A DNA stretch of 47,983 nt from Verrucomicrobiota bacterium (lineage in GTDB: Bacteria > Verrucomicrobiota > Verrucomicrobiia > Limisphaerales > UBA9464), in NCBI GenBank assembly GCA_039796015.1, contig JBDKKQ010000293.1, positions 1 through 47,983 on the forward strand, given 5' to 3'. This document shows positions 4,198 through 47,982 of this stretch, piece after piece (position 1 is the stretch's first letter; the number at the start of each line of letters is the position of its first letter). Under the pieces are notes generated by a model. That model was not told the DNA's origin and made no database searches. It saw only the letters and a program-made list of their open reading frames with translations. Both the position numbers and the translations under genes were made by a program.

Positions 4198-5016
4198 TTA
4201 TTGGGGCAACAGGCGCAGCACGGACTGCGGCAGCTGATTGGCCTGGGCCAACATCGCTGTGGTGGATTGATTGAGAATGTTCTGTCTTGAGAACTCCGTA
4301 CTCTCGCTAGCCACGTCCACGTCTTTAATGGCCGAGGTGGCGGCCGTGAAGGTCTCGATGGTGGCTGCCAAGTATTCGGAGGCCATGTTGAGGCGGGATT
4401 GATTGGCGCCGACATTGGCTCGGTCTGCAGCCAATTGAGTGATGGCCGTTCGCACTGCAGACAGTGCGGTGGTGGCCGCTCCGGTGGTAGAGATGCCGCT
4501 GGCACTTTGGGTCACCGCATTGTAGGTCGCTGAAGCGGACCCCAGGTTGATCCCACTCATCACGAAGGCGGTTCCCTCCGAATCGATCACCGATTCAACG
4601 TCGGCTGCCGAAAAGAGCGAAACACTGTTGAACTCCTTGTTGGCGAGGTCGGAGATGTAGCTCTTGAGTTGCGAGAACTCATTGTTGTAGAGGGCCCGGT
4701 CGGCGTCGCTCTTAGTACCGTCGAGCGAGAGCATGGCTAGTTCGCTCATCCGGTTCAGGGTCTTTGCAACCCGCTTGAGGTAGCCGTCCTGAGTGTTGGA
4801 AAAGGATTGGGCGTTGGACACGTTGTCCTTGGCCGCATTGGCACGCTCAAGTTTGGCGTCGAAACGCATGCTGACGGCCAGACCGCCTGCGTCATCGTAA
4901 GCGTTTACGATGCGAGAACCGGAGCTGAGTTTGGCCAGCGACTTGGTGAGAGCGGCCGAGGTGCGCGTGAGGTCGTTGGAGGCCGATTGGGCGGCCAAAT
5001 TGGAGCCAATGGTCAT
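4198..5016 (-). CDS. fliC: flagellin (short, 272 aa)
   Basis: LSSGSRIVNAYDDAGGLAVS N-terminal and IKDVDVA..STEFSRQNIL..AMLAQANQLPQSVLRLL C-terminal flagellin motifs. Confidence 0.95.
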   Translation of the reverse strand: MTIGSNLAAQSASNDLTRTSAALTKSLAKLSSGSRIVNAYDDAGGLAVSMRFDAKLERANAAKDNVSNAQSFSNTQDGYLKRVAKTLNRMSELAMLSLDGTKSDADRALYNNEFSQLKSYISDLANKEFNSVSLFSAADVESVIDSEGTAFVMSGINLGSASATYNAVTQSASGISTTGAATTALSAVRTAITQLAADRANVGANQSRLNMASEYLAATIETFTAATSAIKDVDVASESTEFSRQNILNQSTTAMLAQANQLPQSVLRLLPQ

Positions 5017-5077
5017 GGGAGTAATTTCTATCGGAGTGGTTTCAGTTCAGTGGAAACCTCAGAGGGGTCGAGAGTGC

Positions 5078-5884
5078 TTACTGCGGCAACAGTCGCAGCA
5101 CGGACTGAGGCAACTGATTGGCCTGGGCCAGCATGGCGGTGGTGGATTGATTGAGGATGTTTTGCCGCGAGAACTCAGTGCTTTCGCGGGCGACATCGAC
5201 ATCTTTGATCACCGAGCTGGCGGCGGTGAAATTCTCGATGGTGGCCGCGAGCTGGTCGTTAGCCATGTTAAGCCGGGACTGGAAGGCGCCAATGGTGGCT
5301 CGGTCGGCGGCCAATTGGTCGATGGCCTTGCGGATGCCGCTGAGTGCGGTCGTCGCGAAACCGGTCGTCGCGATTGAGCTGCCGGTGACTGAGGTGTAGG
5401 TGACAGAATCTAGATCCACACCCGTCATGTTGAAGGAGGTGCCCTCGGAATCGATGACGGACGCCACGTTTGCCGCCGAGAACAGGCTGACCGAGTTGAA
5501 CTCCTTGCCGCCCACGTTGGTGATGTAGCTGCTGAGCTGATCGAATTCGTTTTCGTAGAGCGCCCGGTCGGCGTCGCTCTTAGTACCGTCGAGCGAGAGC
5601 ATGGCCAGTTCGCTCATACGGTTGAGGGTCTTGGACACCCGCTTGAGGTAGCCGTCCTGGGTGTTGGTGAACGACATCGCGTTGGCCACGTTATCCCGGG
5701 CGGCGTTGGCTCGCTCTATCTTGGCGTCGAAGCGCAGGCTGATGGCGACTCCGGCCGCGTCATCGTACGCATTCACAATGCGTGAACCCGAGCTGAGTTT
5801 GGCCAAGGACTTGGCGAGTGCTGCGGATGTGTTAGTGAGGTCGTTGGCGGCCGATTGTGCAGCCAAGTTGGAACTGATAATCAT
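5078..5884 (-). CDS. fliC: flagellin (short, 268 aa)
   Basis: Same flagellin N/C motifs; tandem paralogue of 4198..5016. Confidence 0.95.
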   Translation of the reverse strand: MIISSNLAAQSAANDLTNTSAALAKSLAKLSSGSRIVNAYDDAAGVAISLRFDAKIERANAARDNVANAMSFTNTQDGYLKRVSKTLNRMSELAMLSLDGTKSDADRALYENEFDQLSSYITNVGGKEFNSVSLFSAANVASVIDSEGTSFNMTGVDLDSVTYTSVTGSSIATTGFATTALSGIRKAIDQLAADRATIGAFQSRLNMANDQLAATIENFTAASSVIKDVDVARESTEFSRQNILNQSTTAMLAQANQLPQSVLRLLPQ

Positions 5885-6845: not shown

Positions 6846-6940
6846 GTGCCAGGGCCCATGGAACGTGGACTTGTGAACCCCGCCAGGGCCGGAAGGCAGC
6901 AACGGTGCTTGTTCCGCGTCTGCCGTGGGTACCCTGGCAT
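6846..6940 (+). ncRNA. ffs: small SRP RNA (4.5S)
   Basis: Helix-8 motif GCCAGGGCCGGAAGGCAGCAACGGT, terminal stem gtgccaggg/ccctggcat, followed by U-rich tract. Confidence 0.93.
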
Positions 6941-7089
6941 TTTCTCTTTTCACGGCGAGGGCGGTTTACGGAATCCGTTCCGTCAGGTCCGATTCCGTTA
7001 GGGCATAAATGAGGTTGGTTCGTCAATGACCGGACCGCGTGTCTGGACTTCGAGTTGAACAATGACCGCGGCATGCTAAGCGTCTCATC

Positions 7090-8538: not shown

Positions 8539-9236
8539 ACCTGCAAACACAGCCCCCCCTCGATACCAGCGGACTTTCGCCCGCGGAACGAACCCGTCTG
8601 GAATACGACGCCCTAACCCGTCAGTTAGAGCGCATGCGGGCCATGCAATATGCTTACAACCGCAAGTTCTTCTCGCTCCTGTTAGTGTCTACGTTGACTG
8701 CCATTGGCTTGCTTTTGTGGGACCGTTGGATGGGGTGGTTCGTAGTTTGTTTTGGGTTGATCAGCACCGGGGTTACGGCCTCGTTCTTCCTGCACTTTTG
8801 TGACTTTGCCCGAGTCCATGCTCGAGCCCTCGAGGCCCGAATCAATATGCTCTTGGGCGCGAAGGTCCTCATCGCCTCGGAATTGGAGGCTGATTACTTC
8901 TATCCCCATGTTTCGCCCAAATTGAGCGGGTTCAGCTATGAAAACCCGGGGTCGTTCTTTTCGGTGTACACCCTGCATTTTTGTGCGGTCTGGGGGCTGA
9001 TGATCTTGTTGAGCGCCTGGAGGCTTTGGGACCAGGTGGATTCCACGGTCTGGTTTTGTTGGGCTGTTCTTTGGTGCGGATGGAGTGCGGCTAACGGGTT
9101 GTACTTGCGGTGGTGGTTCGGTGACTTCAGGGCCGAGGCCCGCATGGCCCGTCGTTTGGCCGAGACCTACGGCTTGCCTCAGGATCCCCAGTCGTCCGAG
9201 TCGGTTCCGCTGGTTTCGGAGCCGCCTGTTTCCTAA
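8535..9236 (+). CDS. hypothetical multi-pass membrane protein
   Basis: About 4 hydrophobic segments; ATG overlaps photolyase TGA (ATGA). Confidence 0.7.
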   Translation: MNLQTQPPLDTSGLSPAERTRLEYDALTRQLERMRAMQYAYNRKFFSLLLVSTLTAIGLLLWDRWMGWFVVCFGLISTGVTASFFLHFCDFARVHARALEARINMLLGAKVLIASELEADYFYPHVSPKLSGFSYENPGSFFSVYTLHFCAVWGLMILLSAWRLWDQVDSTVWFCWAVLWCGWSAANGLYLRWWFGDFRAEARMARRLAETYGLPQDPQSSESVPLVSEPPVS

Positions 9237-25142: not shown

Positions 25143-25313
25143 GGGCTACGCGGGACCAGTCCTGCGCTCGCAGGGAAGCTTTGGAGAGGATCGGCTTTCG
25201 CGCGGTGCGCGAGGGGAGGGTTTGATCGCTTCCAATGCTTGCTCCGGACCGATCCCGCTCCGCTGCGGTTTTAGGGGGCTACGCGGGACCAGTCCTGCGC
25301 TCGCAGGGAAGCT
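25143..25313. repeat. REP/REPIN-like element: one full ~117-bp copy plus a perfect 38-bp partial copy
   Basis: gggctacgcgggaccagtcctgcgctcgcagggaagct at 25143 and 25276; 25143..25259 is homologous to 45654..45772. Confidence 0.8.
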
Positions 25314-25321
25314 CAGGCGAG

Positions 25322-27888: not shown

Positions 27889-27953
27889 TTCAAAGTGGGA
27901 CTGTTGGGGCGATCGGCTTATGGGATCCCGCCCCGGTCGGGGGGAGAGATAGT

Positions 27954-28350
27954 GTCTTGGAAGGGCTGTAAGCCGAATTCTGTCTTCCTGACTTGCGCCA
28001 GGGAGAGAGTCATTTCTCTGAGCGACCGATACCCGGAACCCGATCGACTTTCGCCGATACGATGCGGGCCGCATCGAAGGTCCCCTATTTGGTCTTGCTC
28101 CCGGAGAGGTTTGCCATGCCCCGCTTCTTGCGTCGCGAGCGGTGGTCTCTTAAACCGCCTTTTCACCCTTACCCGTACCTTTCGGCGCGGGCGGTATATT
28201 CTCTGTGGCACTGTCTGTCGGCCACGCCTTACGTCGTGACCTCCCGCGTGTATCTCCGGCCTAACCGGAGTTACGTGGCTCCGCGCCCTATGGAGTTCGG
28301 ACTTTCCTCCCGCAACTTGCGCCGCGAGCGACCCTCCACCCTTCCAAGAC
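27954..28350 (-). ncRNA. rnpB: RNase P RNA (type A)
   Basis: Minus strand GAGGAAAGTCCGAACTCC near 5' end, ACAGAATTCGGCTTACAG near 3' end, P1 stem gtcttggaaggg/cccttccaagac. Confidence 0.95.
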
Positions 28351-40264: not shown

Positions 40265-40341
40265 GATGTCTGCAACAGACCAGCGACCGAGGGTCACCGT
40301 TGTCGCAAGCCCGACTCCGCCGAACTGCGCACGACCGGATA

Positions 40342-40500
40342 CCCTTCCATATGCCTGCGAGGTTAGCTGACGGGCTAGGGCCTGGAAGTGCCCCGGGTCG
40401 GTTTCCCCACCCTACGCCCCGTGCTGAAATCATGGATTGATTTCAGCCTTGGGTCCCCCGCGCTTGTTCGATTGGACACCGACCAAGCTTCGGCTGCTGG
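40342..40500 (-). promoter_or_regulatory. c-di-AMP (ydaO/yuaA) riboswitch
   Basis: Minus strand GCAGCCGAA..GCGGGGGACCCA..GGGGCG..AGCCCGTCAGCTAACCTCGCAGGC..GGAAGG consensus blocks; upstream of a K+ transporter. Confidence 0.9.
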
Positions 40501-40727
40501 GCCGTGTTACGCCAGAACTCGGCCTTCTGTCAATACGGGTGACGGTCGAGTCACGGTGGCGTCACAGGGGGTAATTACCGCTGGAGGGCAGGGGGGAGAA
40601 TTTGCATGAGGCATCCATAAGAGGCGGGTTGCTCGGTGTTCTGGAGCGTTCTCGACCACTGAATAGACCTTCACCTTTGCAATTCGTCCCTTGACGGGCG
40701 GGGGCTCTCGGAGGTTCTTGGGAGTGC

Positions 40728-42806: not shown

Positions 42807-43341
42807 GCGGAGGCGGGGGGGCTTTTGCTCCCCGCATTGCTCCCCGCGGACCGGTTGCTGCGTCAGAAGCGTTCGAGTGGTTCGCTCTGTGTTCGGCCGT
42901 CAGAAGCGTTCCTTGTCTGGCTGCCTGCCCGCTCATTTCAGCAGCACGGAGTCGGGGTGGAGCGATTGCTCACAGGCGTGGCGTTGGCTCCCGGTTGTAT
43001 TGGCTCTCAGCAACGTTCCGGAATCCACGGAAAGTTGCCGGTTCAAAATCCGAGGTTTTTCCGGATCCTCGGATGGGTTTTCTTCTAGGATGAATGCCCG
43101 CGTCTCTTACTTCTTCCAGATGAGGCTGAATGCGTCCGGGGCCCACCAGAGTTGATCAGAATTCCCTCGGGTAACCGACAAGCTGAGGCCGGATCAATGA
43201 TCCGTTGAGTTTCTGAGTTCAGTGGTTTCCAAACCGGCAAGTTGCATTGGTCTTCACACCGTCACTGACAATTCGCCTCGGTTGAGTTTTCTGGGGCCAG
43301 TCACCGCAGGCGGTTTTGGCGAAGGAGTTTGTCGCCGGGAC

Positions 43342-44360: not shown

Positions 44361-45476
44361 TCAGCGGAGGTTTTCCGGATTGAGCCCGTGGAGGTCCTTC
44401 GGCACGAAAAGACCATCTCGCCGGATGATTTCGGAATCGAACCAAACCTCGCCGCCGCCCCACTCCGGGCGCTGGATTTGCACCATGTCCCAATGAACGG
44501 CAGACTTGTTGCCATTGCCCGGATCTTCGTAGGCCTGACCCGGAGTGAAGTGCAGGGAACCAGCGATCTTTTCATCGAACAAGATGTCGCACATCGGGTT
44601 GAGGATGAAGGGATTGAACCCGAGGCTGAACTCGCCGATGGACCGGGCTCCTGCGTCCATATCGAGGATCTCGTTGAGCTTGCGCTCGGTGCCGCCCTGA
44701 CAAGTGGCCTTGATGATACGACCCTCTTTCAGTTCCAGGCGGATGCCCTCGAACTTGGTGCCGGCATACAGGGTCGGCGTATTGAAGGTGATCACGCCAT
44801 TGGCCGATTTGAGCGTGGGACAACTGAAGCACTCGCCATCGGGAATATTGCGCAAGCCCTCGCAGGGCTTGGCTCCGATATTCTTGATGGAGAAGGAGAG
44901 ATCGGTGCCCGGTGCTACCAACCGCACCTTGTCGGCCTTGATCATGCGCTTCTCCAGAGGCTTCACAGCTCGCGCCATCTTGGCGTAGTCCATGGTGCAC
45001 ACGTCGAAGTAGAACTTCTCGAAGGCCTCAGTGCTCATGTTGGCCGACTGAGCCATGCTCGGCGTCGGCCAGCGCAGGACGCACCAGCGAGTCTTGTTGA
45101 TGCGGTGATCGAGAGCCGGCCGGAGAGTCTTAGAATAGAGCCGGGTCTTCTCGGACGGCACATCGCTGTTCTCGCTGGCGTTGTTCGCGCCGCGGATGGC
45201 GATGTAAGCCTGCATCTTGCGGATGCGGTTCAGCTCGATATCCCGCACCAGTTTGGCATGATGTTCATCGGTTCCCATCTGAACCTCGCGGAGGATCCGA
45301 GAATGGCGCATCTCCACAATCGGAGTGGCACCGACGGCCCGAGTGGCGCGGATGAGTTCCACGGCCATCGCATCCGGAGTATCGACTAGGTCGATCAAGA
45401 TGTTCTCTCCCGCCTTTAGTTCGCAGGAGTATTCGATGAGAAGCTTGGCCAGTTTGGCGTAACGCGGGTCGCTCAT
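44361..45476 (-). CDS. M29 family aminopeptidase (AmpS/AmpT-like)
   Basis: NIPDGECFSCP, IGEFSLG, LFDEKIAGSLHFTPG, SAVHWD. Confidence 0.92.
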   Translation of the reverse strand: MSDPRYAKLAKLLIEYSCELKAGENILIDLVDTPDAMAVELIRATRAVGATPIVEMRHSRILREVQMGTDEHHAKLVRDIELNRIRKMQAYIAIRGANNASENSDVPSEKTRLYSKTLRPALDHRINKTRWCVLRWPTPSMAQSANMSTEAFEKFYFDVCTMDYAKMARAVKPLEKRMIKADKVRLVAPGTDLSFSIKNIGAKPCEGLRNIPDGECFSCPTLKSANGVITFNTPTLYAGTKFEGIRLELKEGRIIKATCQGGTERKLNEILDMDAGARSIGEFSLGFNPFILNPMCDILFDEKIAGSLHFTPGQAYEDPGNGNKSAVHWDMVQIQRPEWGGGEVWFDSEIIRRDGLFVPKDLHGLNPENLR

Positions 45477-45564
45477 GTGTTCTGGCTCTAAAGAAGACCA
45501 CGCCTTCCCCCCAGAGGCCACGCAAACATTAAAATCCCACCTGCCAGGATCGCTGCCGGGGTCG

Positions 45565-45860
45565 GTCCCACCTATTTACACAAAAATAGCCAGTCTTGCA
45601 TATTTTTATGGTGATGGGGTGGCAGGGCTGTCGCTGGGCACGAGTGCCTCGAGGAGCTCCGCGGGAACAGTCCTGCGCTCGCAGGTAAGCTCAAGGAAAG
45701 GTGGAGCTTTCGCGCTGTGCGCTAGGGGAACTGGGTGTTCGCTCCCAATGCTCGCTGCGGACCGATCCCGCTGCCGCCAGGGTCCGCTGCCGCCAGGGTG
45801 CGTCCTCCTAAATTCATCAGTCCTACCTTTTTACACAAAAAGGGCCTGTCTTGCATATTT
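45565..45860. repeat. 41-bp direct repeats (45565..45605, 45820..45860) enclosing a REP-like element (45654..45772) and a 16-bp tandem duplication (45768..45799)
   Basis: gtcc(c/t)acct(a/t)tttacacaaaaa(ta/gg)gcc(a/t)gtcttgcatattt, 36/41 identical; ccgctgccgccagggt x2. Confidence 0.8.
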
Positions 45861-45893
45861 ACAAGATCCTCCGGCTCGACCAAAATGATAGTT

Positions 45894-46829
45894 ATGGCCC
45901 GTAAGCTGCGCATCGAATATCCCGGAGCGATCTACCACGTCATGAATCGAGGAGATCGACGTGAAGCCATCTTCCGCGATGATGTTGATCACCAGTTGTT
46001 CCTCAGCACACTCGACGAGACCTGCGTCAAGGCCGATTGGCTCGTTCACGCCTATTGCCTCATGGGCAATCATTTCCACGTGGTGCTGGAGACGCCCCGG
46101 GGCAATTTGGTGGCGGGGATGAAGTGGTTCTTGGGCACCTACACCTTGAGGTTCAACCGGCGTCACGGTGTGTCGGGTCACCTCTTTAGCGGACGCTACA
46201 AGGCTCTCTTGGTTGATCCAGGTCAGCCGGATTACCTGCGGACGGTCTGCGAATATGTCCACCTCAACCCCGTGCGCGCCCAATTGCTGCAACCCACGGA
46301 GCCGTTGCAGGCGTACCGGTGGAGCAGTTATCCGGCCTACCTAGAGCAGAACCGCCGACGGCCTGCCTGGCTGCAAGTGGAGCGGGTCTTGGGGGTAATG
46401 GGGATCCCCAAGGAAAGCTCGGCGGGTCGAAAACAGTTCGAGCGATTAATGGAAGAGCGGCGACGCGAGGAAAACCCGGAAGATTACGCCGGAATTCGGC
46501 GAGGGTGGTGCTGGGGTGATGACTCGTTTCGCCGAGAGTTGGTGGCGCAATTGGAGTCGGGCGGAGCTGCTTTAAACTCCGGCGTGGAGTTGCAGGAGCC
46601 GGCCACTGAGAAGGCCGAACGTTTGGCGCGCGAAGCATTGGCGAAGCTCGGTTGGAAGGAGACTGACTTGGCGGAGCGTCGCAAGGGAGACCCGGCGAAA
46701 CTCAAGATAGCCTTAACACTGCGTGCGGAGACCACCATGACCCTGAAATGGATCGCAGCCCGTCTTCAGATGGGGACCGCGTCGAGTCTGAGCAACCTGT
46801 TTTCGGCGAGGCGAACTGCCAAGAGGTGA
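45894..46829 (+). mobile_element. Y1 HUH transposase, REP-associated tyrosine transposase (RAYT)-type, with C-terminal HTH-like extension
   Basis: MARKLRIEYPGAIYHVMNRG, YCLMGNHFH (HUH), GHLFSGRYKA, EYVHLNPVRA (catalytic Tyr), YRWSSY. Confidence 0.88.
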
Positions 46830-46839
46830 ACGAGTCCTT

Positions 46840-47982
46840 TTACGGCGAGCCCCTGAGCACCAGGTCGAGGGATTCCGGCGTACCGAAGAGGTCGAGGACT
46901 CGGCGAGATCGGGTGATGCCCGTGTAAAGAAGGTTGCGGCTGAGGAGCCGGGACTCGGCGTTGGACGGCAGTTCGAGGGCGACCGAATCCCATTCGCTTC
47001 CCTGGCTTTTGTGGATAGTGAGTCCGAAGGCCGGTTGATGCGCCGGCAGTCGGACCCGCGGGATCAGCCTCGGGATTCCATCGGCCCCCGGAAAAAGAAC
47101 CAGTGTGGCCGGACCACCGGAGATGGGGCCGAGGGCGATGCCGATATCGCCATTGCTCAGTCCGAGCGAACGCAGGTTGGCCAGAATCAATACCGGACAA
47201 CCATGGGGCAGTTCGCTGAGAGATCGGGCCCCCTTGCCCCAAAGCAGCGCGGTGCCGGCCTGGTTGGCGCGGTCCACCTGATGATTGGCGCTGCAGAGGA
47301 GTTGAAATCGCCCAAGAAGTCGCAAGGCCTCATTCCGAGCCTGTCCTTGGGACTGAGCCTCAGAACCTGAGTCCTGGCAGAGCTCGGTCCAAGTGCGGGC
47401 CAGCTCTCCCCACGATTTCCAGCGCTCTTGGCAAAAGATCCGGCGGGATCGGTCGGGTGACTCACGATGCCAAGTGAGAACAGGTTCGGTCGCCGAGGCA
47501 TGCCGATCGAAGCACTCCTCGATAGAGCTCCGCGACTGAGTGCCGCCGGGCCGAACGCACTCGGCGAGATCAAGAACCCAGGGCGCGTTCATTGCGCGCC
47601 AACTGTGTCGGAGCCCCACCACCAGTCCGGGCAGCGCCTCCCCGGGGCTTTCCGAGGGAAGGTGGGGCAACCCTTGATCGTACTCGGCTTGGACTTGTTC
47701 GTTCGAAATCCCGAGCCGGGCGGCCAGGCGAGTTTGCAGAGCCTCTGGAAGGAGGCGGTTCTGGCCCGCTCTTTGGACGAATTCAGAGAGGATACCACCC
47801 ACGTCGACGCTCTCCAGTTGGTCGCTGTCGCCCAGCAGTAGCAGCGATGCGTCCGGCGGTAAGGCTCGAATCAGCGCATGCATCAACGACAAATCGACCA
47901 TGCTGGCTTCATCAACCAGCATCACACGGACTTGGAGCGGTCGGAGCGCGTTCCGCCGGTAGGGGCCGCCACGTTCCGGAGG
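46840..47982 (-). CDS. recD: RecD-like helicase (exodeoxyribonuclease V alpha), 5' part outside window
   Basis: LVDEASMVD, LLGDSDQL, NGDIG, TIHKSQGSE, LLYTGITR; frame is open to the window edge. Confidence 0.88.
   Translation of the reverse strand, partial: PPERGGPYRRNALRPLQVRVMLVDEASMVDLSLMHALIRALPPDASLLLLGDSDQLESVDVGGILSEFVQRAGQNRLLPEALQTRLAARLGISNEQVQAEYDQGLPHLPSESPGEALPGLVVGLRHSWRAMNAPWVLDLAECVRPGGTQSRSSIEECFDRHASATEPVLTWHRESPDRSRRIFCQERWKSWGELARTWTELCQDSGSEAQSQGQARNEALRLLGRFQLLCSANHQVDRANQAGTALLWGKGARSLSELPHGCPVLILANLRSLGLSNGDIGIALGPISGGPATLVLFPGADGIPRLIPRVRLPAHQPAFGLTIHKSQGSEWDSVALELPSNAESRLLSRNLLYTGITRSRRVLDLFGTPESLDLVLRGSP

Follow-up and report, generated by a model that had tools for sequence, protein, structure and literature searches.

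The repeat that stands upstream of a Y1 transposase gene in the DNA analysed here belongs to a conserved structured repeat family, element B, that is restricted to one genus, and B together with this gene is most likely a further case of a kind of mobile DNA that has already been described. The DNA, a stretch of 47,983 nucleotides from a Verrucomicrobiota bacterium that we call the window throughout, encodes a protein that fits the TIRYT/TIRtron class and not the classical RAYTs; this class was described by Di Nocera, De Gregorio and Rocco (2013, PMC3733652) and was equated with TnpA-Y1 subclass 2.1 by Quentin et al. (2018, PMC6006769). We consider it somewhat probable (about 0.55) that B is a REPIN- or MITE-like non-autonomous, that is gene-less, partner of this TIRYT. 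The cognate link, including the movement of B by the enzyme and its manner, is one that we infer from the linkage of B to a second module, A, from the adjacency of B to the gene and from their co-occurrence.

The TIRYT gene (45894..46829, plus strand) encodes 311 amino acids: a Y1 HUH domain at the N-terminus, a middle part made of helices and a helical tail at the C-terminus. A preliminary description of the window, made from the letters and their reading frames, had recognised an intact Y1 transposase with an HFH motif and a catalytic tyrosine and without tnpB, and our results confirmed each of these points. The ORF matched Pfam Y1_Tnp (E 3.7e-10), and among 18 homologues at least 90% retained H60-F61-H62 and all had Y102; the neighbouring genes encode an M29 peptidase and a RecD-like helicase, and no tnpB was present nearby. 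The dN/dS ratio ranged from 0.01 to 0.12 in 21 pairs, indicating that the gene is under purifying selection, and at least seven species had the gene at this locus. In the AF2 model of the protein (pLDDT 85.3), residues 237-310 form five predicted helices, and the top Foldseek match was 4er8_A (TM 0.74 normalised to the target), the structure of the E. coli RAYT in complex with a REP hairpin; matches to IS200/IS605 TnpA proteins (IS608, ISDra2; PDB 2vjv, 2xma and others) followed with E values of 1e-4 to 1e-3. By sequence, the PDB gave a single chance-level match (9s83_A, E 0.049), and a profile search of it gave none at E up to 10. In addition, no Pfam HTH domain was found in the C-terminal region at E up to 1 in the 18 homologues, and Bac_DnaA_C or HTH_23 occurred in just 11-12% of the members of the nearest ESM Atlas clusters, which serves as a lead only. 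These results support the view that the window gene encodes an intact and selected Y1 HUH enzyme with a predicted RAYT-like fold.

The label of a RAYT-type nuclease, under which the gene had been introduced, did not survive. Against NCBIfam NF047646 (REP-associated tyrosine transposase) the protein scored 44.9 bits, below the curated equivalog cut-off of 80, and the TIRYT/TIRtron class fits it instead. TIRYT genes are described as flanked by inverted repeats with GGGGWSAS, not by REP hairpins (PMC3733652, PMC6006769), and subclass 2.1, which was present in 14.9% of the strains surveyed, has a C-terminal extension resembling the HTH domains Bac_DnaA_C, HTH_23 and HTH_28 (Quentin et al., PMC6006769). 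In the family studied here, the RAYT-like Y1 HUH protein likewise has ~310 aa and a helical extension at its C-terminus; in homologues, GGGGWSAS-type inverted repeats, here GGGGTCAG/GGGGTCGG, bracket the gene, and these repeats are also seen without a gene, singly, as dimers or in clusters. We searched 80 homologous loci of species-representative genomes for the motif GG[GT]TC[AG]G[TC][TC]C at 30-130 nt before the ATG and for its inverted form in the 80 nt that follow the stop codon; it was present at both ends in 37, upstream only in 11, downstream only in 6 and absent in 26. The consensus of the terminal repeat, which carries GGGGTCRGTCC, was identical on both gene sides; in most homologues the motif preceded the ATG by 51-82 nt, both ends fell within 36 nt of the gene in 9/25 loci from relatives, and a scan of a genome collection returned at least 556 related stretches. 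The window gene differs from described members of the class in that it has the left repeat only and is fixed at one locus: no inverted copy was recognisable after its stop codon, and the convergent helicase gene ends 10 nt past that codon. Thus, the earlier remark that an element lies on one side of the gene only is correct for the window gene and does not extend to the gene family, where inverted repeats stand on both sides. B is also unlike what has been described for the class: it is 118 nt long, has a conserved core and an apical hairpin of its own and is no plain dimer of the repeat, and its copy numbers (62 here and at least 89 in relatives) exceed those of the "moderately abundant" families of PMC3733652. 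No biochemical test of any TIRYT was encountered in literature searches or in passages of PMC3733652 and PMC6006769.

Module A is a solo copy of the left end of the TIRYT and the clear cis element of the enzyme. The first copy in the window (45557..45604, plus strand) consists of GGGGTCGGTCC, 5 nt, ATTTACA and then ~20 nt, and stands 52 nt upstream of B; the second (45817..45860, plus strand) is the gene's own left terminal repeat with a promoter-like leader and ends 33 nt before the ATG. The two form a direct repeat with 86% identity, and nhmmer recovered 35 copies of the family in the genome. The exact 11-mer of A occurred 37 times in the genome, 32 of them inside A copies, against 2 for the reversed control, and a 23-nt repeat pattern was multi-copy in 25/41 related genomes, with the reversed control at 0 in all of them. 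Across 7 orthologous loci, the second copy was the most conserved non-coding stretch, with a mean pairwise difference of 0.051 vs 0.16-0.21 for the spacers. Plain repeat-to-repeat miniature elements of 52-150 nt were also observed in related genomes. An ordinary promoter role of A for protein genes was considered and set aside, the downstream gene being co-directional in just 4/14 A-only clusters according to crude gene calls.

Full copies of a ~118-nt element had been reported at two places in the window, and both were recovered, together with a partial third. All three lie on the plus strand: 45656..45773 (109.5 bits with our model R1), upstream of the TIRYT gene; 25145..25259 (119.6 bits), between convergent genes and with no module A nearby; and 25278..25317, a left arm only (HMM positions 1-40) in tandem with the preceding copy. 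A repeat search of the window returned the same places, as a 46-nt repeat shared by 25143, 25276 and 45654 and a 37-nt repeat shared by 25223 and 45736. Directly 3' of the copy next to the gene lies a 16-nt tandem duplication (45768..45799, plus strand), which corresponds to a 16-column gap in 6/6 aligned orthologous loci. B is an imperfect hairpin whose terminal stem measures 13 bp; it further has two GCTCGC motifs that face each other, a helix of the GGAAGC/GCTTCC type and, at its apex, a CGCGC hairpin. The end pairing, the C.A and A.C mismatches, the facing GC-GA-GC motifs, GGAAGC/GCTTCC and CGCGC-N3-GCGCG, which the preliminary description had noted, all appeared in the minimum-energy folds. 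MITEs are defined by terminal inverted repeats of 15-30 bp, a target-site duplication and no coding capacity. B has no ORF, its 13-bp terminal stem is imperfect, and neither long perfect terminal repeats nor target duplications were clearly seen for it; both of its edges carry a constant GCTCCGC, which is therefore not a variable (target-site) duplication. Most copies start with GCTCC, and GCTAC, the complement of GTAG, occurs in 4/39 aligned copies.

It had been proposed that copies be collected and examined for covariation, and in 45 aligned copies this gave a positive answer: 18/31 pairs changed on both sides vs 10.6 expected, a value reached by 0/500 shuffles, with compensatory changes in three helices. 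Pairing was kept in 86.2% of cells, vs 80.1% in shuffled alignments and 22-44% with slid partners. In four folded copies, the RNA z-scores were -3.50, -3.97, -0.74 and -5.45 for the minus strand and +0.31, -1.97, -0.27 and -4.10 for the plus strand; the minus strand was thus the better one in 4/4, and the order was the same when the copies were folded as DNA. The preliminary description had further read the mismatches of the plus strand as wobble pairs of the minus strand, and this is true of the two window copies. It is not a general rule: over 46 copies, the plus strand held 86 A.C vs 67 G.T cells, with 55 vs 26 in the terminal stem and 1 vs 13 in the apical hairpin. A match to a described RNA family was also looked for. 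At the gathering threshold, Rfam identified only RNase P, SRP and a c-di-AMP riboswitch in the whole window and none at B, and 45480-45900 gave no match at E up to 10.

In the draft genome (3.25 Mb), nhmmer detected 62 matches to B, of which 46 were near full length. B was present in 17/23 other genomes of the genus and almost absent from the other genera searched, and its counts per genome varied widely, from 0 to at least 89. In behaviour, B resembles mobile or unstable DNA: between species at 92-96% identity its arrays differed in tandem copy number and make-up. At one site in the relative G014, a 481-nt insert contained two B units and other DNA, and the site was empty in this genome; for this site, the only empty one and bounded by GGTGGG, insertion and deletion between GGTGGG repeats are equally good explanations. 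Orthologous B sites were mostly kept from species to species. A comparison of this genome with 20 regions of G014 and G002 that carry B gave no clean insertion of a single B; most of these regions ended at contig breaks or differed in array length alone. In alignments of orthologous loci, B differed by 0.113 vs 0.16-0.21 for the spacers, suggesting some constraint on its sequence. We also observed that repeat modules beyond A accompany B in intergenic mosaics of variable number, and that the same genome holds an unrelated repeat family of ~270 nt.

The case for a link between B and the TIRYT begins with the fixed arrangement of A and B. A was followed by B on the same strand in 17/35 A copies, at a spacing of 17-20 nt in 10 of them, and orientation was uniform in 63/63 clusters of A and B elements. 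The order A-B-A-gene of the window was kept in 6/7 syntenic loci at 88-95% nucleotide identity; in the seventh, B was internally deleted. Among the 23 other genomes of the genus, 16 carried both B and the TIRYT family, 1 only B, 2 only the TIRYT and 4 neither, so that the proposed check on co-occurrence also came out positive, though confounded by descent. A TIRYT sharing at least 69% identity with that of the window was present in 13 genomes (G000 included), each of which carried 33 or more B copies. In genus genomes without B the M29 gene has other neighbours, so the B-bearing genomes are probably a single clade, and their co-occurrence with the TIRYT does not count as independent evidence.

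An alternative that we regard as unlikely is that B is a dispersed repeat spread by another enzyme, or by recombination and tandem amplification, and adjoins the gene only because several repeat families pile up in the same intergenic spots. The ends of B speak for it. Only 6 of them came within 1 mismatch of the repeat 11-mer, so that the tips resemble the motif without matching it well, and the idea that they are true copies of the terminal repeat is weakened; near-matches to the 11-mer outside any element numbered 138 vs 161 for the reversed control, which is background level, and B has no inner ATTGACA box of the terminal repeat. In this respect, the earlier designation of B as the cognate element of the enzyme retains its support from co-occurrence within the genus and loses it at the ends, A being the clear cis element and the tips of B a poor match. 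G020 (90% complete) favours the alternative as well: it has 30 B copies, and neither a TIRYT of this family nor the repeat pattern was found in it. Further genomes count against the preferred reading: G025 contains 12 repeat motifs, with no TIRYT detected, and G006 and G010 have TIRYT homologues and no B. Moreover, B varies between species in tandem copy number and not in new sites, other repeat modules travel with it, and the ~270-nt family and other Y1 paralogues share its genome. Against these points, the order, orientation and spacing of A and B are fixed and A is the end of the TIRYT, the syntenic loci keep their order, every genome with a close TIRYT is rich in B, and neither A nor B was found on the contigs of the other Y1 paralogues, the full TIRYT gene itself being present in one copy in the genome.

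B might instead be, or double as, a structured RNA, either a small RNA started from a promoter-like A or a hairpin that acts in cis within read-through RNA; effects on mRNA stability or termination have been reported for REP, ERIC and Correia elements. We think this quite improbable. Module A was flagged as sigma-70-like, with TTTACA-N18-CATATT pointing into B, and the minus strand of B has tandem G.A pairs, G.U wobbles and the better z-scores; yet these two strands conflict, as a promoter in A would give the plus strand and the structure favours the minus strand. By crude gene calls, B was antisense to same-direction neighbour genes in 19 clusters and sense in 6, so read-through RNA would carry the better-folding strand, but relative to the single upstream neighbour gene B was near even (14 co-directional, 15 opposed). 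B is more conserved than its spacers; a DNA hairpin, however, predicts the covariation equally, tandem B arrays without A exist, a T-run terminator is absent and Rfam offers no match. In metatranscriptomes of two studies, contigs run across A and B, and across A-B-A into the gene. Eighteen runs recorded as RNA contained at least half of the sampled words of 44400-47900, and four were compared with 45100-46300; contigs covered A, B and the gene start at 45559-45952 in X1 and at 45558-45743 and 45745-46028 in X5. Such libraries may contain DNA, and being assembled contigs they show neither strand, ends nor transcription. Their starts near 45558 coincide with the high-copy core of A (summed depth 4131 in X1) and so reflect breaks of the assembly at a repeat. 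Contigs of X2 and X3 did not cover B, and nothing was drawn from that. The stronger proposal, under which B would be a functional RNA that binds, guides or regulates the TIRYT, made from A as a portable promoter or as a minus-strand fold, stabilised by G.A and G.U pairs, of read-through RNA, appears very improbable indeed, and nothing was found in support of the structured RNA partner suggested in the preliminary description; if true, B would be the first RNA partner of a Y1 HUH transposase.

It is also very unlikely that B is a chromosomal binding or architectural site adopted by the host, as proposed for BIMEs and REPs, with the TIRYT kept for an unrelated host function. Such a role would agree with the vertical persistence of B sites over long times, with purifying selection on a gene that is no longer self-mobile and with the conservation of nucleotides in loops and mismatches, GCTCGC of the two arms among them. 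The restriction to one genus and counts from 0 to at least 89 agree better with a selfish or commensal repeat than with a core function.

Under the reading that we prefer, in which B is a gene-less partner of the TIRYT, the window gene would be the resident TIRYT of the lineage, kept by selection at a fixed locus and, its right end being lost, no longer able to move itself. In trans, the enzyme may use as substrates gene-less stretches bearing its end motif: module A and the A-B and B units. If it works like IS608 TnpA and the E. coli RAYT, its Y1 domain would cleave and religate a single DNA strand folded as a long imperfect hairpin, for example at a replication fork. The putative recognition features are the mismatched GCTCGC/GCTCGC core and the GGGRTCRGTCC-like stem foot, the C-terminal helical tail may add DNA binding, and arrays would grow and shrink through tandem duplication.

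Several known systems share part of this picture. As in the REPIN-RAYT system (Bertels and Rainey 2011, PMC3116915, and later papers), one Y1 transposase gene, passed on vertically, accompanies tens to hundreds of ~100-nt hairpin elements with two inverted arms, which persist across species divergence and whose arm changes keep pairing. Unlike that system, no GTAG-tagged REP palindrome is present here, the flanks of the TIRYT gene being A modules without one, the arms of B are no REP sequences, the protein lies below the NCBIfam RAYT cut-off, each cluster has one orientation, and the GCTCGC shared by the arms is direct, not inverted. Between genes, a few repeat modules (here A, B and others) form mosaics in which the number of units varies, an arrangement reminiscent of the BIMEs of E. 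coli. BIMEs alternate REP orientation, whereas orientation here is uniform within every cluster. With IS200/IS605 TnpA, the enzyme shares the catalytic fold (Pfam Y1_Tnp) and, presumably, the chemistry of single-strand cutting at hairpins. IS200/IS605 elements have subterminal hairpins, are often multi-copy and often carry tnpB; they reportedly lack terminal inverted repeats and have a short TnpA of ~130-150 aa (in part from PMC6006769). The protein here has 311 aa with extra domains, terminal repeats occur in its family, and there is one full copy with no adjoining tnpB. Correia/NEMIS, ERIC and RUP are bacterial MITEs transcribed into RNA hairpins (Background of PMC3733652); B falls within their size range (70-300 bp), resembles them in its intergenic position and strong hairpin, and differs in that its candidate enzyme is a Y1 HUH protein and not a DDE transposase.

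TIRYTs are a large class of Y1 enzymes, and this lineage offers a natural dissection of one of them into a one-ended, selected gene, solo ends (A) and structured high-copy hairpins (B) joined to ends. Should B prove not to be a substrate of the enzyme, it would be one more repeat family that breaks assemblies of freshwater Verrucomicrobia and lacks an explanation. If the enzyme does act on it, the conserved mismatched core and the foot of the stem would reveal the features by which a TIRYT recognises its DNA, and the pair would be a second, independent case of long-term coexistence in the style of REPIN-RAYT, in a different phylum.

The open reading frame at 45894-46829 (+), which has an M29 peptidase gene and a RecD-like helicase gene as neighbours, encodes a Y1 HUH protein of 311 aa with the HFH motif and the tyrosine, and no tnpB adjoins it; the intact Y1 transposase of the preliminary description is thus confirmed. 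Its designation as RAYT-type holds for the fold: in the AF2 model (pLDDT 85.3), the nearest structure to the N-terminal domain is the E. coli RAYT-REP complex 4er8_A, followed by IS608 and ISDra2 TnpA. However, the protein falls under the NCBIfam RAYT cut-off. Its helical tail shows lead-level hints only of Bac_DnaA_C or HTH_23. RAYT-like genes flanked by terminal inverted repeats are termed TIRYTs, and the units TIRtrons, in the relevant passages of Di Nocera et al. 2013 (PMC3733652), which describe a common motif GGGGWSAS and moderately abundant gene-less repeat families occurring as dimers or clusters. Most TIRYTs were placed in TnpA-Y1 subclass 2.1 by Quentin et al. 2018 (PMC6006769), whose passages on this subclass describe its proteins as long, with an HTH-like extension at the C terminus, and the subclass as lacking REPs. 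The window protein resembles the TIRYT class in its length, its sub-cut-off RAYT score and its RAYT-like N-terminal fold. The earlier interpretation is thus right in part: the enzyme is RAYT-like but fits this already described class.

The window is contig C293 of a draft genome (G000; 3.25 Mb, 487 contigs, 77% complete) that contains one full copy of the TIRYT protein. Homologues were found in 31 of 41 genomes of the order (E up to 1e-20), several of which hold numerous copies, some of them fragments with stop codons. In homologues from other genera, GGGGTCRGTYC-N5-ATTGACA precedes the gene and its inverted copy follows, in some cases overlapping the stop codon; the consensus of the left end and that of the right end agree. 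A scan of species-representative genomes returned at least 556 related stretches. Among the best 80 of these, the record titles were chiefly Verrucomicrobiota, Pedosphaera or Limisphaerales MAGs, and the end motif lay on both sides in 37, upstream only in 11, downstream only in 6 and on neither side in 26. A 23-nt end pattern is multi-copy in numerous relatives, reaching 47 in G021, and its reversed form gave 0 in all; miniature elements of 52-150 nt with two ends facing each other are present in three genomes (G021, G013, G027). In a further genome, G025 (90% complete), in which no TIRYT was found, the end motif is arrayed in direct tandem with a unit length of about 257 nt (L074-L076), and the pattern has 12 matches genome-wide.

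Upstream of the window gene, a 44-nt direct repeat, module A, brackets the structured repeat B at 45562-45605 and 45817-45860, the second copy ending 33 nt before the ATG. Module A has 35 copies in G000. In 17 of them a B copy follows in the same orientation, at a spacing of 17-20 nt in 10 and of 39-105 nt in 7, and within each of the 63 clusters of A and B elements the orientation is uniform. It was also flagged as sigma-70-like (TTTACA-N18-CATATT). The exact 11-mer of the terminal repeat occurs 37 times in G000, 32 of them inside A copies, against 2 for the reversed control. Because this 11-mer is concentrated in A and is the end motif of the gene family, module A corresponds to a solo left end, and it is the enzyme's demonstrable cis element. 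Further conserved modules accompany B elsewhere (contigs C253:3257-3374 and 9025-9144 and C25:8786-8841 of G000; locus L174 of G014): both C253 copies have a common stretch of about 60 nt downstream, and in G014 a stretch of about 130 nt is repeated along with B. The repeats between genes thus form mosaics in which more than two modules take part.

The same two neighbour genes surround TIRYT in seven other species at 88-95% nucleotide identity, and in further species, at 72-79% protein identity, the start of the M29 gene is seen upstream of it. No recognisable right end was found at the window gene, and dN/dS was 0.01-0.12 in 21 pairs, indicating that the protein has been kept though the unit cannot move as a whole. 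The upstream A-B-A arrangement is present in six of the seven syntenic loci, B being internally deleted in the seventh. At the orthologous locus L045 of G003 (about 1338-1393), B consists of two arms joined directly, a mini-hairpin derivative scoring 46.9 bits with the B model R1. Directly after the window B copy, a 16-nt unit, CCGCTGCCGCCAGGGT, is tandemly duplicated (45768-45799) in G000 alone, whereas it is single at each of the six orthologous loci. In orthologues at a greater distance (G011, G016, G001), the gene's own left end is all that lies upstream, so the A-B unit was added in a sub-lineage. Among orthologous loci, the mean pairwise difference was 0.051 for the own left end, 0.113 for B, 0.137 for the other A and 0.16-0.21 for the spacers.

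The recurrence of B at 45654 and 25143 was borne out: window positions 45654-45775 and the region near 25143 have two common blocks, of 46 nt (78-93% identity) and 37 nt (89%), and a partial third copy starts at 25276. Folding likewise reproduced the proposed architecture. The ends pair, the stem passes two facing GCTCGC motifs, which on the plus strand produce T.C/C.T mismatches and on the minus strand tandem G.A pairs, and inward of these a GGAAGC/GCTTCC helix leads to a CGCGC-N3-GCGCG hairpin at the tip. The claim that C-A mismatches at the ends become G-U or G-T pairs on the minus strand is true of both window copies (C.A and A.C on the plus strand) but not overall, since hand counts on 46 copies gave 86 A.C versus 67 G.T. 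The minus strand had the lower z-score in all four copies folded both ways, as RNA and DNA alike, and with RNAalifold the 46 copies scored -20.0 on the minus strand versus -6.0 on the plus strand. In most G000 copies the heptamer GCTCCGC stands at the left edge and recurs, as a direct repeat, just within or beyond the right edge (e.g. 45656-45662 and 25254-25260); in some, as at 45770-45777, GCTGCCGC replaces it. A fixed target or cleavage sequence may describe this heptamer better than a variable target duplication.

Iterated nhmmer found 62 matches to B in G000, 46 near full length; by BLAST, copies have 67-84% identity to the one in the window. Almost all are intergenic on a crude gene call, and many are found at the ends of contigs or in tandem, with four copies at most in an array. 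Compensatory change, proposed earlier as a check, is present above shuffles: in 45 copies aligned to a covariance model, pairing cells made up 86.2% (80.1% shuffled, 22-44% with slid partners) and 18 of 31 pairs changed on both sides (10.6 expected), values reached by none of 500 shuffles, although these figures overstate independence, since the copies share descent and their alignment had been fitted to the model. Such changes include GC/UA in the terminal stem and, in the inner helix, AU/GC and GC/CG. Conservation in B is highest where the stem is mismatched: C.T at one position is found in 46 of 46 copies, and GCTCGC occurs in both arms in the same orientation. No Rfam family matched B. Searches with model R1 recovered B from 17 of 23 further genomes of the genus (6 to at least 89 copies) and from none of 17 that represent other genera of the order; a wider sample of other genera of the family gave B in 4 of 57 genomes, with 1-3 copies each. 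Some copies in these four (G076, G063, G091, G092) score like home-genus copies (122.6 bits in G076), and their presence may reflect horizontal transfer or mis-binned contigs from co-occurring genus members. As a family of structured repeats, B is new and specific to the genus.

An RNA, and equally a single-stranded DNA hairpin that a Y1 enzyme reads, would be expected to show covariation and conserved mismatches. A promoter in A would give a plus-strand transcript, whereas structure favours the minus strand. Between two neighbour genes that both run one way, the elements are antisense to them in 19 clusters and sense in 6 by crude gene calls. This excess could mean that read-through RNA carries the better-folding strand, or it could stem from insertion biased relative to replication, a bias that IS608-type enzymes have. 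Metatranscriptome contigs from two studies span A, B and the gene start, which proves neither transcription nor strand.

The window also contains an unrelated repeat, non-coding and about 270 nt long (42950-43330, core about 43003-43275), with 25 nhmmer matches in the genome and no open frame in six frames; its subterminal inverted 12-mers, AAGTTGCCGGTT and AACCGGCAAGTT, give it the look of a second family of MITE type. Three regions exceed the Rfam gathering threshold: a bacterial RNase P class A (27953-28347, minus strand, 218.8 bits), a small SRP RNA (6847-6942, plus strand, 73.1 bits) and a c-di-AMP riboswitch (40337-40505, minus strand, 62.4 bits). Two 300-nt direct repeats at 4198-5884, 868-880 nt apart and 75-78% identical, lie across two adjacent minus-strand ORFs of about 270 aa, probably tandem paralogous genes.

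Most orthologous B sites are common to species that are 92-96% identical, between which the number of tandem copies and the composition of arrays vary. One site carries in G014 an insert of 481 nt that includes two B units but is empty in G000; GGTGGG lies on both sides, which fits target duplication or deletion alike. The proposal that the element is cognate to the enzyme gains from the linkage of A and B, from the conserved adjacency to TIRYT and from co-occurrence in the genus (both in 16 genomes, B only in 1, gene only in 2, neither in 4); the tips of B, moreover, are GGGAYCRGTCC-like and in the correct inverted arrangement. However, just 6 B ends lie within one mismatch of the 11-mer, near-matches elsewhere being at background level, G020 has 30 B copies and a search for TIRYT in it found none, and G006 and G010 have homologues without B. 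In addition, local synteny is absent from those genomes of the genus that have no B, which probably makes the B-bearing ones a single clade and their co-occurrence not independent evidence. Taken together, B is probably, though not demonstrably, a non-autonomous partner of TIRYT.
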